From UHGV virus genome UHGV-1581813: a DNA stretch of 11,947 nucleotides; one strand, given 5' to 3'. The notes below the pieces were generated by a model. That model saw nothing but the letters and a program-made list of their open reading frames with translations, made no database searches and was not told the DNA's origin. Shown in pieces: positions 7,479-11,947 of this stretch (position 1 is the stretch's first letter; each line of letters opens with the position of its first letter). The position numbers were made by a program, and so were the translations under genes. The DNA is from a virus.

Positions 7479-8339
7479 TCACCTGTCGAAAAACACGTAG
7501 CCAGTTTTCGATACGGTGATTGCGGATGATGGTTTAGATTGTGGTTGAATGGTTTCTGGCTTTTCGTCGTTCCAGCGCTGACCGTTCAGGTAGCTCGATG
7601 GTAACAACCTGTCGAATCCGAACTGCTTACCATTCCTGCATGCGATGTCTTCTGCCAGCATCGTGGCAAACTCGCTTGCCGTACCCTTGGTAGTTTTACG
7701 CCATTCCCTGAACTGTGTTCTGAATGCCGTAGCTGCGTTTTTCTTCCCGGCTTTCCGCATGCCTGCACACCAGAATATTTCCTCGAATGCCTTGTCGGTT
7801 TCTTCGTGACGGTCAGGTGATTTTTCACACTCCGTCCGAACACTTTCGGACATAGTGTTTTTATTATTTCTTTTTTCTTTTGTAATAGTTTCTTTTGTGT
7901 GTCCCTGTTTTGGTGACAGCGCTGTCACCGTTTTGGTGACACTTTTTGTCACCAATGCAGTGACATTATCACCAGAGTAGTGACACCCTTCGATTTTCCA
8001 TTCTTCGATGTTCTTGTTAGGCCCGATTTGCTGGCCTTCGCGAAGGATAACCTTCATCGCGATAAGCTCATTCTTGGCCTTGTTTACCTTCTGTCTTGGC
8101 AGCCTGGTAATTTGAGCTAACTGACTATCAGAGATGCGATCCATCTTTTTACCGTAGCCGTATGTTTTACGGCATATGGCGTGGGCAACCTTGCTCTGAT
8201 TTTTCGTTAAATCTGCGCCGATAAGCTCTTCATACAGGGCATTTGCAAGACGGGTATAACCATCTTCAACTTCTGCCACACGACGCTCCACAGGCCGTTG
8301 TGAAGGCCTTAAATGTGTTACGGTTGCAAGATTAATCAT
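7479..8339 (-). CDS. Replication initiator, lambda O-like N-terminal domain
   Basis: 286-aa ORF. Its N-terminal ~110 aa (…[14 protein letters not shown]…ADLTK…[25 protein letters not shown]…GPNKNIEEW) are clearly homologous to lambda O as I recall. The gene contains the iteron array, as O contains ori-lambda. Confidence 0.85.
7858..7990. repeat. Candidate origin of replication inside the O-like gene: four GTGACA-containing iterons plus an adjacent AT-rich tract
   Basis: GTGACA occurs at 7913, 7936, 7960 and 7980 (20-24 bp spacing), each within an inverted-repeat unit such as GGTGACAGCGCTGTCACC. An AT-rich block lies at 7858-7900. The order iterons-then-AT-rich in the direction of O transcription matches ori-lambda architecture. 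Confidence 0.6.
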
Positions 8340-8912: not shown

Positions 8913-9098
8913 TTATGCCGCTTTGCGGTAAGCGCTTTCTTGATACTTCAGGGCGCCAGCTGTAACGACTTCCAGTCGATAGGCGTCTTTCTCTGGGATG
9001 ACTTCCTTCCACTGAGAGACTGCTGCGTCGCTAATGCCTAACGCTTTAGCTACAGCACGCTGGGTTCCGAAGTGGTCGATAACATCTTTCTTGTACAT
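8913..9098 (-). CDS. cro: Cro repressor (P22-type)
   Basis: 61-aa ORF MYKKDVIDHFGTQRAVAKALGISDAAVSQWKEVIPEKDAYRLEVVTAGALKYQ... with a helix-turn-helix, divergent from the repressor gene. It resembles P22 Cro as I recall. Confidence 0.85.
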   Translation of the reverse strand: MYKKDVIDHFGTQRAVAKALGISDAAVSQWKEVIPEKDAYRLEVVTAGALKYQESAYRKAA

Positions 9099-9178: not shown

Positions 9179-9829
9179 ATGAAAACTCAATTGATGGGAG
9201 AGCGCATTCGCGCTCGGAGAAAAGAACTCAAGATCAGGCAGGCCGCACTTGGAAAGATGGTCGGCGTGTCTAATGTTGCCATATCTCAGTGGGAACGCTC
9301 TGAGACAGAGCCAAATGGAGAGAATCTTCTCGCCCTGGCTAATGCGTTGAAGTGTTCCCCTGACTATCTGATGAAAGGAGAGGAAAGTCTTTCAAACATT
9401 GCCTATCACAGTAGGCATGATCCAAGAGGGTCATACCCTCTGATTAGCTGGGTGAGCGCAGGATGCTGGATGGAAGCTGTAGAACCATATCATAAGCGTG
9501 CAATAGATAACTGGTACGATACAACCGTAGACTGTTCAGAAGATTCGTTTTGGTTGGACGTGAAGGGAGACTCAATGACGGCTCCGGCCGGTCTCAGTAT
9601 CCCTGAAGGAATGATAATACTCGTCGATCCTGAAGTAGAGCCGCGTAACGGGAAACTGGTAGTTGCAAAGCTCGAAGGAGAAAACGAGGCAACTTTCAAG
9701 AAGTTAGTTATTGATGCAGGCAGGAAGTTTCTAAAACCACTTAACCCACAATATCCGATGATCGAGATCAACGGGAACTGCAAAATCATCGGCGTAGTTG
9801 TCGATGCAAAACTAGCAAACCTTCCATAA
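9179..9829 (+). CDS. c2: Prophage repressor, P22 c2-type (HTH plus LexA-like S24 autopeptidase domain)
   Basis: 216-aa ORF MKTQLMGERIRARRKELKIRQAALGKMVGVSNVAISQWERSETEPNGENLLALANAL... with a C-terminal S24-type domain (…WLDVKGDSM…). It closely resembles the P22 C2 repressor as I recall. Confidence 0.9.
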   Translation: MKTQLMGERIRARRKELKIRQAALGKMVGVSNVAISQWERSETEPNGENLLALANALKCSPDYLMKGEESLSNIAYHSRHDPRGSYPLISWVSAGCWMEAVEPYHKRAIDNWYDTTVDCSEDSFWLDVKGDSMTAPAGLSIPEGMIILVDPEVEPRNGKLVVAKLEGENEATFKKLVIDAGRKFLKPLNPQYPMIEINGNCKIIGVVVDAKLANLP

Positions 9830-9830
9830 G

Positions 9831-9855
9831 GGGGCATTCGCCCCTTTTTTTATTT
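9831..9855 (+). terminator. Intrinsic terminator after the repressor gene
   Basis: GGGGC-ATTC-GCCCC hairpin followed by TTTTTTTATTT, starting 2 nt after the repressor stop. Confidence 0.6.
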
Positions 9856-9890
9856 CCTTTAAAAATCAAAGCCAAACTTAAGTTACGAAA

Positions 9891-9948
9891 GAAAATTTAA
9901 GTTTTCTTCAAAAATACTCTTGACCATTAATTAAAGAGATCTTAAATT
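9891..9948 (+). promoter_or_regulatory. pL promoter with overlapping left operator(s)
   Basis: -35 TTGACC (9920-9925), 17-bp spacer, -10 TAAATT (9943-9948). Operator-like ATTAAAGAGATCTTAAAT (9930-9947) overlaps the spacer and -10, and a second palindromic site GAAAATTTAAGTTTTC lies at 9891-9906. Confidence 0.55.
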
Positions 9949-9993
9949 TAAGCCATCAGCAGGACGCTGGTAGCCAAACGGAACAGATTGGCA

Positions 9994-10035
9994 GGCTCTT
10001 TAACATTGATGGAATTGTCCCGCCGAAATGCGGGA
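9994..10035 (+). promoter_or_regulatory. nutL (boxA plus boxB hairpin)
   Basis: boxA-like GGCTCTTTAACA (9994-10005), then 12 nt, then hairpin TCCCGC-CGAAAU-GCGGGA (10018-10035), identical to the hairpin at nutR. Confidence 0.6.
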
Positions 10036-10177
10036 ACCAAAGAGTAGTTGGCTTTGGGATTGGATGAATGCGCAGGCTGATGCGCGCAGGAGAGCTTCGG
10101 GAGAACAAGGTGCCTGTAAATAAGCCGGAGTTCAGCACCGGCCATCCAATCGCCAAAGTCAATCATCGGAGGTCAAC

Positions 10178-10483
10178 ATGGCAGTAGTCATTACATATCT
10201 GGCTGACGATAACGCCAGAAATCGCCGCAGAGCACGCAGACAGGCTCAACGTGAACAGGCAATGCAAGAGCAGCGACTGGCGCGAAAAATTGCGCTAAAG
10301 CTCTCTGGTTGCGTCAGAGCAGATAAAGCAGCATCACTCGGAAGCCTTCGCTGCAAGAAGGCAGAAGAAGTCGAGCGTAAACAGAACCGTATTTACTACC
10401 GCAAGCCACGCAGTGAAATGGGTGTGACTTGCTCAGGCCGCCAGAAACAACGCGGAAAATCAATTCCAGCTTATTACGATTGA
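10178..10483 (+). CDS. N: N-like transcription antiterminator (arginine-rich motif at N-terminus)
   Basis: 101-aa ORF with GGAGG 5 nt upstream. The N-terminus carries an arginine-rich motif (DDNARNRRRARRQAQREQ). The C-terminus (…RIYYRKPRSEMGVTCSGRQKQRGKSIP…) resembles the lambda N C-terminus as I recall, but the N-terminal motif differs from lambda. Confidence 0.8.
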   Translation: MAVVITYLADDNARNRRRARRQAQREQAMQEQRLARKIALKLSGCVRADKAASLGSLRCKKAEEVERKQNRIYYRKPRSEMGVTCSGRQKQRGKSIPAYYD

Positions 10484-10491
10484 GGTGAGCC

Positions 10492-10629
10492 ATGCTCAAG
10501 AAAGTCAAACGCCGACTTTACAAAGAAGGTAGATATTCATGCCATTTGCCAAAATGCGACACAGCAAAATGGAGTGTCGATGATTGGTGTAACTGGATAG
10601 ATAGATACGGAACTTGGTGGGATAAATAA
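10492..10629 (+). CDS. Unannotated small Cys/His/Trp-rich protein (45 aa), hypothetical
   Basis: Not in the ORF track. The ATG at 10492 lies 8 nt after the N stop and is preceded by TGAGGTGAG. Product is MLKKVKRRLYKEGRYSCHLPKCDTAKWSVDDWCNWIDRYGTWWDK. Confidence 0.45.
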   Translation: MLKKVKRRLYKEGRYSCHLPKCDTAKWSVDDWCNWIDRYGTWWDK

Positions 10630-10683
10630 CAGGTAACTTAAGCGGATTTATTTTCGCAGCAAACCACTTATTTGAGGTGAGAT

Positions 10684-10947
10684 ATGGACGAGAAAATTAA
10701 ATCATTGAAGCCAGGAATTGTTATCAGAGACATAAGTGGTTATTACGATACAGAGACATATGATATTTTATATGTGCATGCAGATGGAAAATGTCAGTAT
10801 TCGAACGACATTTTTAATAATAAAGGCGATGCCGAAATTGCTGCCACCACAGTTAATAAAGAGCTCGTAGCTAACGAGTCGTGGGATTATTTTATGCCAT
10901 CATCCACTTCTATGAACTGGAAAGTGGTTTTGTACATTCCATCATAA
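10684..10947 (+). CDS. Hypothetical protein (87 aa), AT-rich accessory gene downstream of N
   Basis: ORF MDEKIKSLKPGIVIRDISGYYDTETYDILYVHADGKCQYSNDIFNNKGD..., preceded by the same TGAGGTGAG ribosome-binding motif as the 45-aa ORF. AT-rich codon usage; an intrinsic terminator follows. Confidence 0.55.
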   Translation: MDEKIKSLKPGIVIRDISGYYDTETYDILYVHADGKCQYSNDIFNNKGDAEIAATTVNKELVANESWDYFMPSSTSMNWKVVLYIPS

Positions 10948-10988
10948 TTGTAGCTGCCGTTCAAAAATGAAAGTAAATCTAACATCAC

Positions 10989-11012
10989 AGGCCGCATAGT
11001 CGGCCTTCTTTT
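10989..11012 (+). terminator. Intrinsic terminator after the 87-aa ORF
   Basis: AGGCCG-CATAGT-CGGCCT hairpin followed by TCTTTTGG. Confidence 0.5.
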
Positions 11013-11131
11013 GGCATAAACAACAGAATAAACACTGCACTGTGTATTCATTCCAACGAGTGAATACACTGAGCAATGTCGCTCGTAACTAAACAGGAGC
11101 CGACTTGTTCTGATTATTGGAAATCTTCTTT

Positions 11132-11157
11132 GCCCTCCAGTGTGAGGGCGATTTTTT
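11132..11157 (+). terminator. Intrinsic terminator upstream of ea10
   Basis: GCCCTC-CAGTGT-GAGGGC hairpin followed by GATTTTTTAT, 20 nt before the ea10 start. Confidence 0.55.
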
Positions 11158-11177
11158 ATCTATGAGGATATGAATAG

Positions 11178-11546
11178 ATGTCAAACATCAAAAAATACAT
11201 CATTGATTACGACTGGAAAGCATCAATGGAAATTGAAATCGACCATGACGTAATGACAGAGGAAAAACTTCACCAGATTAATAATTTCTGGTCAGACTCT
11301 GAATACCGACTCAATAAACACGGCTCTGTATTAAATGCTGTATTAATCATGCTGGCGCAACATGTTCTGCTTATAGCAATTTCAAGCGACTTAAATGCAT
11401 ATGGTGTTGTGTGTGAGTTCGACTGGAATGATGGAAATGGTCAGGAAGGATGGCCTCCAATGGATGGTAGTGAAGGAATAAGAATTACCGATATCGATAC
11501 ATCAGGAATATTTGATTCAGATGATATGACTATCAAGGCCGCCTGA
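11178..11546 (+). CDS. ea10: Ea10-like protein (122 aa; function in lambda poorly defined)
   Basis: ORF MSNIKKYIIDYDWKASMEIEIDHDVMTEEKL... with an acidic C-terminus. Its length, its position immediately upstream of cIII, and its spacing to cIII match lambda ea10 as I recall. Confidence 0.65.
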   Translation: MSNIKKYIIDYDWKASMEIEIDHDVMTEEKLHQINNFWSDSEYRLNKHGSVLNAVLIMLAQHVLLIAISSDLNAYGVVCEFDWNDGNGQEGWPPMDGSEGIRITDIDTSGIFDSDDMTIKAA

Positions 11547-11618
11547 GCGCGGCGTTACCGCATACCAATTACGCTTCACTCGAGGCGTTTTTCGTTATGT
11601 ATAAATAAGGAGCACACC

Positions 11619-11783
11619 ATGCAATATGCCATTGCAGGGTGGCCTGTTGCTGGCTGCCCTTCCGAATCTTTACTTGAACGAATCACCCGTAAATTACGTG
11701 ACGGATGGAAACGCCTTATCGACATACTTAATCAGCCAGGAGTCCCAAAAAATGGATCAAACAATTATGGCTATCCAGACTAA
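11619..11783 (+). CDS. cIII: CIII (inhibitor of FtsH-mediated CII degradation)
   Basis: Not in the ORF track (54 aa). AGGAG lies 6 nt upstream of the ATG at 11619. Product is [54 protein letters not shown], matching lambda CIII as I recall. Confidence 0.75.
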   Translation: MQYAIAGWPVAGCPSESLLERITRKLRDGWKRLIDILNQPGVPKNGSNNYGYPD

Positions 11784-11895
11784 ATTCACTATCGCCACTT
11801 TTATTGGCGATGAAAAGATGTTTCGTGAGGCCGTCGACGCTTATAAAAAATGGATATTAATACTGAAACTGAGATCAAGCAAAAGCATTCACTAA
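11752..11895 (+). CDS. kil: Kil (FtsZ-inhibiting host-killing protein)
   Basis: From the ATG at 11752 (AGGAG 9 nt upstream) the product is [47 protein letters not shown], 47 aa. It overlaps the 3' end of cIII by 32 nt, as the lambda kil/cIII pair does. The track ORF 11626..11895 is an upstream in-frame extension. Confidence 0.7.
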
Positions 11896-11947
11896 CCCCC
11901 TTTCCTGTTTTCCTAATCAGCCTGGCATTTCGCGGGCGATATTTTCA

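Follow-up and report, generated by a model that had tools for sequence, protein, structure and literature searches.

The intergenic interval at 10948-11177 of the 11,947-nt stretch of viral DNA analysed here (the window) is very probably the lambdoid intergenic region between the ral slot and ea10 of the pL operon, and comprises chiefly the gene for PreS (LPR1), a small RNA (sRNA) of phage lambda. The features that an initial annotation had pointed out in this interval could be confirmed. The principal one has been described before: it is PreS/LPR1 with the terminator tL2a, in a copy identical to that of lambda.

The window covers the immunity and early-left region of a lambdoid prophage and is oriented along pL transcription (Table 1). 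The gene context supports the assignment of the interval, as an N-like gene, ea10, cIII and a Lambda_thermo element are all present. Upstream of PreS, and with the same orientation, are the N-like gene and nutL; ea10 starts 20 nt 3′ of the sRNA gene. Near-identity to lambda was detected over ~11007-11177 and on through ea10, which corresponds to the ral-ea10 intergenic region of lambda. The two phages differ upstream, where the window has orf87 (phrog_33140) and a stronger T1 hairpin, whereas lambda has ral.

Table 1. Features of the window, with coordinates counted from its first base.
Feature	Position	Strand	Details
cro-like gene	8913-9098	minus	
cI-like repressor gene	9179-9829	plus	
Terminator	9828-9847	plus	
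pL-like promoter	9920-9948	plus	
nutL-like boxA and boxB	~9994-10030	plus	
N-like gene	10178-10483	plus	phrog_271
orf45	10492-10629	plus	
orf87	10684-10947	plus	phrog_33140, function unassigned; upstream neighbour of the interval; occupies the lambda ral slot
Intergenic interval under study	10948-11177		
Terminator-like hairpin T1	10989-11012	plus	stem AGGCCG/CGGCCT, 10989-10994/11001-11006; 6-nt loop CAUAGU
Conserved RNA hairpin directly 5′ of PreS	11037-11074	plus	the 9-bp repeat is its core
Inverted repeat	11042-11050/11061-11069		GTGTATTCA-N10-TGAATACAC; perfect, 9 bp
PreS (LPR1) sRNA gene	11071-11158	plus	88 nt; 88/88 positions identical to lambda
Processed PreS form	predicted start near 11091		~68 nt
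PreS seed region	11106-11132	plus	UGUUCUGAUUA 11106-11116; AAAUCUUCUUUG 11121-11132
Intrinsic terminator tL2a of the early-left operon	11130-11157	plus	8-bp stem 11130-11151; TTTTTT 11152-11157
Small hairpin over the ea10 translation start	11158-11180	plus	AUCUAU 11158-11163 pairs with AUAGAU 11174-11179
ea10	11178-11546	plus	122 aa, DUF2528/phrog_646; downstream neighbour, as in lambda
Rfam Lambda_thermo element	11606-11664		overlaps the cIII start
cIII	11619-11783	plus	
Putative kil-like ORF	11626-11895	plus	

PreS of phage lambda is unchanged in the window

PreS is the name now given to LPR1 of phage lambda (Silverman, Nashef, Bruner, Noy and Melamed, bioRxiv 10.1101/2024.10.31.621285; hereafter Silverman et al.). 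We took its ends, 5′ GAGCAATGTCGCTCGTAACT... and 3′ ...GAGGGCGATTTTTTA, from the cloning and T7 primers P810, P1103 and P1104 (Silverman et al., Table S5). As these primers fix the ends of the sRNA, the copy in the window can be placed at 11071-11158.

In lambda, PreS is an Hfq-dependent and Hfq-bound sRNA that appears on Northern blots as species of ~88 and ~68 nt (Silverman et al.). It is visible no later than 10 min after prophage induction and absent in lysogens, and is confined to the lytic cycle (Silverman et al.). Through a single-stranded seed that pairs with the dnaA 3′ end/dnaN leader, PreS raises the translation of dnaN. A dnaAN-gfp fusion was activated >4-fold and alaS, with which PreS also pairs, was repressed ~2-fold, and both effects were confirmed via compensatory mutations (Silverman et al.). 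Deletion of the seed resulted in less lambda DNA replication and less spontaneous phage release, and the effects of PreS are reported to aid phage DNA replication and the lytic cycle (Silverman et al.).

The window carries this sRNA unchanged, with seed, terminator and dnaN complementarity intact. The seed was placed by means of the mutagenesis primers P838/839 and P888/889 and the seed-deletion primers P970/971. The published mutation sites M1 (CTG) and M2 (GAA) correspond to 11110-11112 and 11120-11122 of the window, and both are unaltered; the bases that pair with alaS (the M2 site) are likewise present. Both parts of the seed, UGUUCUGAUUA (11 nt) and AAAUCUUCUUUG (12 nt), are exact complements of the MG1655 sequence just upstream of dnaN (dnaA 3′ end/dnaN leader). 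The likeness to lambda PreS comprises the 88-nt sequence, the operon position just 5′ of ea10, tL2a, the seed and the dnaN complementarity. On the strength of sequence identity, we expect that the PreS of the window would bind Hfq, be expressed in the lytic cycle and activate dnaN as it does in lambda.

The initial annotation had proposed an sRNA of ~120-150 nt that ends at the second of two terminators and has the inverted repeat as its core. An sRNA does end there, namely LPR1/PreS at tL2a, in an identical copy; its size, however, is ~88 nt (processed, ~68 nt), and the repeat lies outside the RNA rather than forming its core.

Other sRNAs encoded by lambdoid prophages of E. coli, such as AgvB/AsxR, DicF and StxS, also regulate host genes and are mostly Hfq-associated. 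The Pas sRNAs, svsR and HnrS share these properties with PreS but were rejected as the identity of the interval because they belong to other loci, the Pas sRNAs being located in late/Q-lysis or structural regions and svsR at the 3′ end of cI. In the papers searched for the Pas sRNAs, svsR and HnrS, no link to LPR1, ea10 or ral is made.

We searched the whole window against Rfam (release 15) at both the gathering threshold and permissive settings. Lambda_thermo was the sole gathering-level match, and nothing with E < 0.65 was detected in 10600-11400. PreS has no model in this release, and its relatives (described below) likewise match no family. A weak RyhB-like match (18 bits, E = 1.3) was rejected, as it merely reflects the shape of a terminator.

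Terminators, adjacent elements and homology breakpoints

Two plus-strand intrinsic terminators had been proposed for the interval, at 10989-11012 and 11132-11157, and both terminator-like hairpins are present. T1 and the element at 11130-11157 satisfy a scan for a GC-rich stem-loop followed by a U-rich tract, and the region 9500-11947 as a whole contains eight terminator-like sites, compared with 2.2 +/- 1.5 in shuffled sequences. The second element has an 8-bp stem, a tail of six U and a hairpin energy of -12.9 kcal/mol. The 3′ end of LPR1 is equated with tL2a in the preprint (Silverman et al.). As PreS ends at tL2a and the copy in the window is identical, this second terminator is tL2a. Its hairpin and U-tail likely form the Hfq-binding 3′ end of PreS.

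For phage HK106, the annotation labels this element a "rho-independent terminator." Among members of the family, tL2a varies mostly in the loop, or by changes that keep pairing through G·U. Luk and Szybalski reportedly described the tL2 terminator cluster of the lambda early-left operon in the early 1980s, and the preprint, according to which tL2a is documented in lambda, cites this work as its reference 47. The element in the window has the same hairpin and U-tract as that cluster, at the same distance (~21-26 nt) upstream of the ea10 start. There is no sequence difference between the tL2a of lambda and that of the window; the N protein of this phage is a different one. One point stands against our reading of the interval: N-modified polymerase should read through tL2a, which is the site of the PreS 3′ end.

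The T1 tail, TCTTTTGG (also given as UCUUUUGG), contains a weaker, interrupted U tract (UCUUUU). The T1 hairpin has an energy of -9.7 kcal/mol, whereas the weaker lambda-type sequence at the same place has -6.0 kcal/mol. T1 in the form found in the window was detected in 18 IMG/VR loci and in Stx phages, whose homology begins exactly at 10989. It is absent altogether from many phages, and in many only the stop codon of varied upstream ORFs lies directly 5′ of the PreS hairpin (...GAATAA-GCAC). T1 is an optional mosaic module outside the conserved core. It is also the first intrinsic terminator candidate after the N-orf45-orf87 block, and in this phage the putative terminator would stop unmodified pL transcription at that point. 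Because T1 would be the first terminator after N, PreS and ea10-cIII-kil should depend on N antitermination.

The interval folds better than shuffled sequences (z = -3.5), as does the 148-nt stretch 11013-11160 (z = -4.5). No sigma-70-like promoter site was found in 10948-11177 by the scan, and the hexamers read by eye at ~11011-11067 are poor. A boxA-like CGCTCGTAA at 11080-11088 was rejected, as two such matches compared with 2.7 expected is within chance; it has one mismatch relative to what we take to be the boxA of lambda nutL. The small hairpin over the ea10 translation start is an adjacent feature outside PreS. It holds the Shine-Dalgarno sequence GAGGA in its loop, and the AUG is at 11178-11180. 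At the fifth pair the window has A-U where lambda has G-C, and across loci G-C was detected 37 times, A-U 21 times, G·U nine times and A·C seven times.

The initial annotation had also suggested that the interval marks a recombination seam, and the homology boundaries agree with this. The lambda homology of the window begins within 10973-11007, and the breakpoints of other phages cluster at 10973-11037, 11070 and 11157/11159, along the borders of the elements described here. Among the 331 phage records that match the interval, homology starts recur at 10973, 10989, 11009, 11027 and 11037 and often ends at 11157/11159. All full-length matches among these records share 11037-11157 (121 nt), i.e., the hairpin and PreS. 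In IMG/VR, 191 high-scoring segment pairs, a sample biased by the choice of scan patterns, had left ends at 11070 (67), 11037 (35), 10988/10989 (26), 11009/11010 (17) and 10973 (14), and right ends at 11157/11159 (120). Many of the matches to genome contigs look like lambda DNA contamination of unrelated assemblies, and they added no diversity.

A conserved hairpin at the 5′ end of PreS

A 9-bp inverted repeat without a following T-tract had been noted at about 11041-11068. The repeat is perfect and lies one base further to the right (11042-11050/11061-11069), and no T-tract follows it. A perfect 9-bp repeat with a loop of 3-20 nt was found twice in the window, compared with 0.88 expected, which is unremarkable; for a 230-nt stretch it is uncommon, as 1.6% of shuffled stretches of this length contain one. 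The weight of the inverted repeat rests mainly on its conservation.

Folded as plus-strand RNA, the repeat is lengthened to a 12-bp stem (11042-11053/11058-11069) with one G·U pair and the loop CAAC (11054-11057), and to imperfect arms of 22 nt (11032-11053/11058-11079). The 12-bp stem ends one base upstream of the PreS 5′ end. At the base of the hairpin, G11037 pairs with C11074, C11038 with G11073 and C11040 with G11071, while A11039 and A11072 form a mismatch and U11041 lies opposite U11070. The 5′ strand of this base is GCAC(U), 11037-11041, and its partner is (U)GAGC, 11070-11074; the GAGC with which PreS begins therefore makes up the 3′ side. The base just 5′ of PreS is T in the window and G in lambda, so one G·U pair is lost at the hairpin base in the window. 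The hairpin is not mentioned in the preprint, which does not give the origin of the PreS 5′ end (Silverman et al.).

We examined the co-occurrence of the hairpin and PreS in 120 loci chosen by the seed sequence alone. At the PreS 5′ end, 110 of these carry a hairpin of the type found in the window (class A), nine carry a second type (class B), and the last is truncated at the end of its contig; every complete PreS copy in this sample is accompanied by a hairpin. Class A carriers include lambda, HK106, H-19B, Stx phages, Sf101 and the phage of the window. Class B hairpins (UAUAGCAGAUU-UACG/UGCG-AGUCUGCUAUG) occur mostly in Salmonella P22-like phages and also in mEp043 and mEp213. They are flanked as in class A, by ...GAAUAAGC(A/G)C on the 5′ side and GAGCAAUG on the 3′ side. 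The three pairs next to the loop and the basal GC·C/G·GC pairs are shared with class A, whereas the other eight pairs are changed on both sides with all eight still paired, so that the geometry is the same.

A covariance model built from class A alone detects class B at ~29 bits. In an alignment fitted to the covariance model, and therefore to the structure, the covariation score was 0.280, compared with 0.127 +/- 0.010 in shuffles (0 of 500 reached the observed value) and with at most 0.158 when the partners were slid. Reverse-strand palindrome rows in this alignment lowered the percentage of paired bases at G·U columns. RNAalifold did not predict the hairpin from MAFFT alignments because MAFFT placed the class A and B arms out of register or gapped them apart; the two classes were instead compared in a manual register and in the alignment fitted to the covariance model.

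The exchange of arms between class A and class B may have arisen in a single step or a small number of steps (cassette exchange or template switching, for instance) rather than through eight independent compensatory changes. Single changes within a class are mixed, as three keep pairing through G·U and three break a pair. A hairpin that has an arm-swapped second class suggests an RNA boundary or processing element.

Pairing with dnaN, release of PreS and competing readings

In nearly all family members chosen independently of the seed sequence, the seed is unchanged. Relatives of PreS were found in some loci and in many Salmonella phages (ES18, epsilon34, g341c, BTP1 and others). They share with PreS the 5′ stem-loop GAGCAAUAUCGCUC but have diverged in the middle and possess another terminator (GCCGCUC...GGGCGGC), and where annotated at all they are labelled only "terminator." When PreS and three divergent relatives were aligned locally to both strands of a 50-kb E. 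coli region, the top antisense alignment was in each case the dnaA-dnaN junction, with scores of 17-21 compared with a background of 7.2-7.8 +/- 1.5 and a next best of 15-16. The alignment of locus L131 to this junction spans 44 columns with ~36 identities. A ranking of the dnaN site in the 50-kb region by RNAduplex energy was rejected as unspecific because GC-rich windows score equally; only the antisense alignment at the DNA level singles out the junction. These similarities suggest that dnaN targeting is old and common to PreS and its relatives.

As there is no sigma-70-like site in the interval and PreS is silent in lysogens, the sRNA is probably excised from a pL read-through transcript. 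Among processed sRNAs, Hfq-binding RNAs derived from 3′ UTRs or from within operons are cut by RNase E. PreS resembles them in having no promoter-like site of its own, a terminator-type 3′ end that belongs to the parent operon, and a 5′ end located at the base of a conserved helix. This hairpin probably acts as the 5′ boundary element of PreS. After induction the pL transcript would be made, and an endonuclease would cut at the 3′ base of the hairpin, which would generate the PreS 5′ end; the upstream mRNA would keep the hairpin as its 3′ cap. The released PreS would be bound by Hfq and pair with the dnaN leader, and the resulting increase in DnaN would support phage replication.

The candidate enzymes are RNase III, acting in the imperfect extended helix, and, equally possible, RNase E just beyond the helix, or another enzyme. 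RNase III sites are known in lambda pL RNA, in the N leader and in sib. The PreS hairpin is shorter than these classical sites: compared with the ~20 bp (about two turns) expected for RNase III, it has 12 perfect bp, or 17-20 bp with two to four mismatches, depending on the flank. The perfect helix is short for RNase III, and the PreS 5′ end falls inside the basal helix; this end is presumably unlike the sites that RNase E prefers.

In its full form, our proposal is plausible but short of probable. The hairpin at 11037-11074 would be a dedicated, exchangeable processing and insulator element that frees PreS via RNase III or RNase E and leaves the upstream mRNA capped. It has at least two arm-swapped forms, class A in E. 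coli lambdoids and class B chiefly among Salmonella P22-like phages. In the same reading, the PreS family, together with the divergent relatives from Salmonella phages that have another terminator, may have arisen as an inverted copy of ~44 nt of the host dnaA-dnaN junction that has since diverged, with dnaN targeting ancestral and conserved across genera.

The hairpin may instead be unrelated to PreS maturation and serve as a general 3′-end stabiliser or barrier to decay, or be a neutral palindrome at a recombination hotspot. We consider this unlikely, though it has some claim to attention. Some loci have the hairpin but no PreS, namely L136, in which the cIII leader follows it directly, and four class B loci, so its function is possibly not tied to PreS; its position directly 3′ of the stop codons of varied ORFs in many phages and the crowding of mosaic breakpoints in the region point the same way. 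However, every complete seed-selected PreS copy has a hairpin, the 3′ base of which overlaps the PreS 5′ end in both classes, and the replacement of a neutral palindrome by a different one of the same size at the same spot would be unexpected. A stabilising role is compatible with, and included in, the boundary element that we favour.

It is improbable that the functional product is a longer RNA of ~120-150 nt that starts upstream of the repeat, ends at tL2a and has the hairpin as its core. A precursor containing the hairpin must exist transiently in the pL transcript, the minimal class A unit (11037-11157) measures 121 nt, and the 148-nt stretch folds well, as noted above. Northern blots of lambda, however, gave ~88 and ~68 nt, and a species of ~120-150 nt was unreported (Silverman et al.). 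In addition, there is no promoter-like site between T1 and the hairpin, the upstream sequence varies between phages right up to 11037, and class B phages share no arm sequence yet keep PreS from 11070/11071 on.

The initial annotation had also raised the possibility that the inverted repeat is an operator for a dimeric regulator; such a protein, from phage or host, would control transcription of ea10-cIII-kil or PreS. A perfect 9-bp palindrome with a 10-bp spacer that is highly conserved would fit such a site, and the two arm classes could conceivably represent two binding specificities. The pairing, however, is strand-asymmetric. The extension to 12 bp needs a G·U pair in plus-strand RNA, which is a mismatch as DNA, and in both classes the minus strand folds less stably: the cores have energies of -14.2 (plus) and -11.6 kcal/mol (minus) in class A and of -11.6 and -9.4 kcal/mol in class B, and the extended lambda form has -20.2 and -14.6 kcal/mol. 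The arms were replaced wholesale by other sequence while geometry and pairing were kept, and pairing at the hairpin base with the start of the sRNA is part of the conserved unit. Moreover, the repeat is part of an operon that is transcribed under N antitermination, and no promoter-like site is close to it; since class A hairpins occur in phages with differing annotated N and immunity genes, no co-varying regulator is apparent. Given this, we regard an operator as very improbable.

Finally, a small protein encoded by a 29-codon ORF that runs from an ATG at 11076 across the seed and terminator to a stop at 11163-11165 is scarcely credible: the frame is open in the window and lambda has GGAG just 5′ of the ATG, but these Shine-Dalgarno-like bases are only ~2-3 nt from the ATG, family variants alter the 3′ part (terminator flanks and loop) freely with no codon constraint seen, the frame is not kept in the Salmonella-type relatives, and function at the RNA level is backed by compensatory mutations in sRNA and target (Silverman et al.).

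The sRNA, its terminator and its function are already published for the identical lambda sequence, so that the interval has small weight as a discovery. Its value is in annotation, as 2239 of 5426 complete E. coli genomes contain the module unannotated, and hundreds of phage records, those of Stx phages among them, contain it too; it lacks an annotation or is called simply "terminator," and no Rfam model covers it. What goes beyond the preprint is limited to the hairpin where PreS begins, which is conserved and has exchangeable arms, and to the dnaN-antisense relatives; these are modest leads. The hairpin bears on how PreS is made, and the dnaN-antisense similarity in the relatives from Salmonella phages bears on the breadth of dnaN targeting.

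Divergent relatives of PreS and exact matches to it

RNAs resembling PreS, the 88-nt phage lambda sRNA, were identified at four comparative loci (see table) and also in phages ES18, epsilon34, g341c and BTP1. They share the 5′ stem-loop with PreS and differ from it in the middle segment and in the terminator. Such divergent PreS-like RNAs are common in Salmonella P22-like phages, where their sole annotation is “terminator.” The best alignment of their reverse complements is to the E. coli dnaA-dnaN junction, the host region with which the PreS seed pairs in lambda.

The exact 5′ sequence of PreS was also found in assemblies of unrelated bacteria (L202, L204, L208, L215, L216, L219, L228 and others), including Pseudoxanthomonas, Shewanella, Pseudomonas, Neobacillus and Oceanobacillus. 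The contigs involved are often about 48.4-48.5 kb in length, or are short and have coverage near 1. These matches look like lambda DNA that contaminated the sequencing libraries.

Coordinates of features in the window and at the comparative loci
Feature	Location	Strand	Details
Divergent PreS-like RNA	L132:7426-7562	-	
Divergent PreS-like RNA	L131:7732-7872	-	
Divergent PreS-like RNA	L129:5741-5935	+	
Divergent PreS-like RNA	L124:592-786	+	
Hairpin, most of PreS missing	L136:7336-7530	-	
Second PreS copy, fused	L192:8450-8680	-	class B
9-bp inverted repeat	window 7933-7955		loop 5 nt
cI-like 3′ end and terminator	window 9780-9847		AAGGGGGCATTCGCCCCTTTTTTT
nutL-like site	window 9994-10030		downstream of pL-like promoter; boxA GCTCTTTAACA; boxB-like hairpin CCCGC-CGAAAT-GCGGG
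29-codon ORF	window 11076-11165		MSLVTKQEPTCSDYWKSSLPSSVRAIFYL; spans PreS seed and terminator
6-bp hairpin AUCUAU/AUAGAU	window 11158-11180		loop contains ea10 Shine-Dalgarno; overlaps AUG

Partial, doubled and fused modules

At L136, the conserved hairpin that lies just 5′ of PreS occurs with the first ~8-12 bases of PreS, the remainder of the RNA is absent, and the cIII leader is fused directly to the hairpin. Four loci with GAGCAATATCGCATAACTATG..., which carry the hairpin in its arm-swapped form (class B), likewise have the hairpin and the first ~8-12 PreS bases without the rest. These hairpin-only loci are either deletion remnants or a sign that the hairpin works independently.

Additional copies were also detected. 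One locus (L193) has two complete class-B modules, and at L192 a second PreS copy is fused inside its own terminator stem (GCCCTCC joined to GAAATGCGGGAAC) to an apparent nutL boxB of the type that goes with the window's N, beyond which lies the window's N-like gene. The fusion resembles the product of illegitimate recombination through a short motif common to both partners.

Candidate control elements and the ea10 start in the window

The nutL-like site of the window precedes a gene whose N-like product has an N terminus rich in arginine (NARNRRRARRQAQRE), and this N/nut type differs from that of lambda. The cI-like gene leads at its 3′ end directly into a strong terminator; a 2026 paper (PMC12803456) assigns svsR, a candidate sRNA, to the cI 3′ end of a lambdoid E. 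coli NC101 prophage. Apart from the repeat in the PreS hairpin, the window contains just one 9-bp inverted repeat that is perfect and has a short loop.

The 29-codon ORF across PreS was considered as a coding sequence and rejected. It is probably untranslated, because its Shine-Dalgarno spacing is poor and the frame is unconserved in relatives.

Pair 5 of the hairpin at the start of ea10, the downstream neighbor of PreS, is A-U in the window and G-C in lambda; across loci it is G-C in 37, A-U in 21, G.U in nine and A.C in seven. The hairpin could be an element that controls translation of ea10; alternatively, this pattern could reflect mere linkage between neighboring sites.
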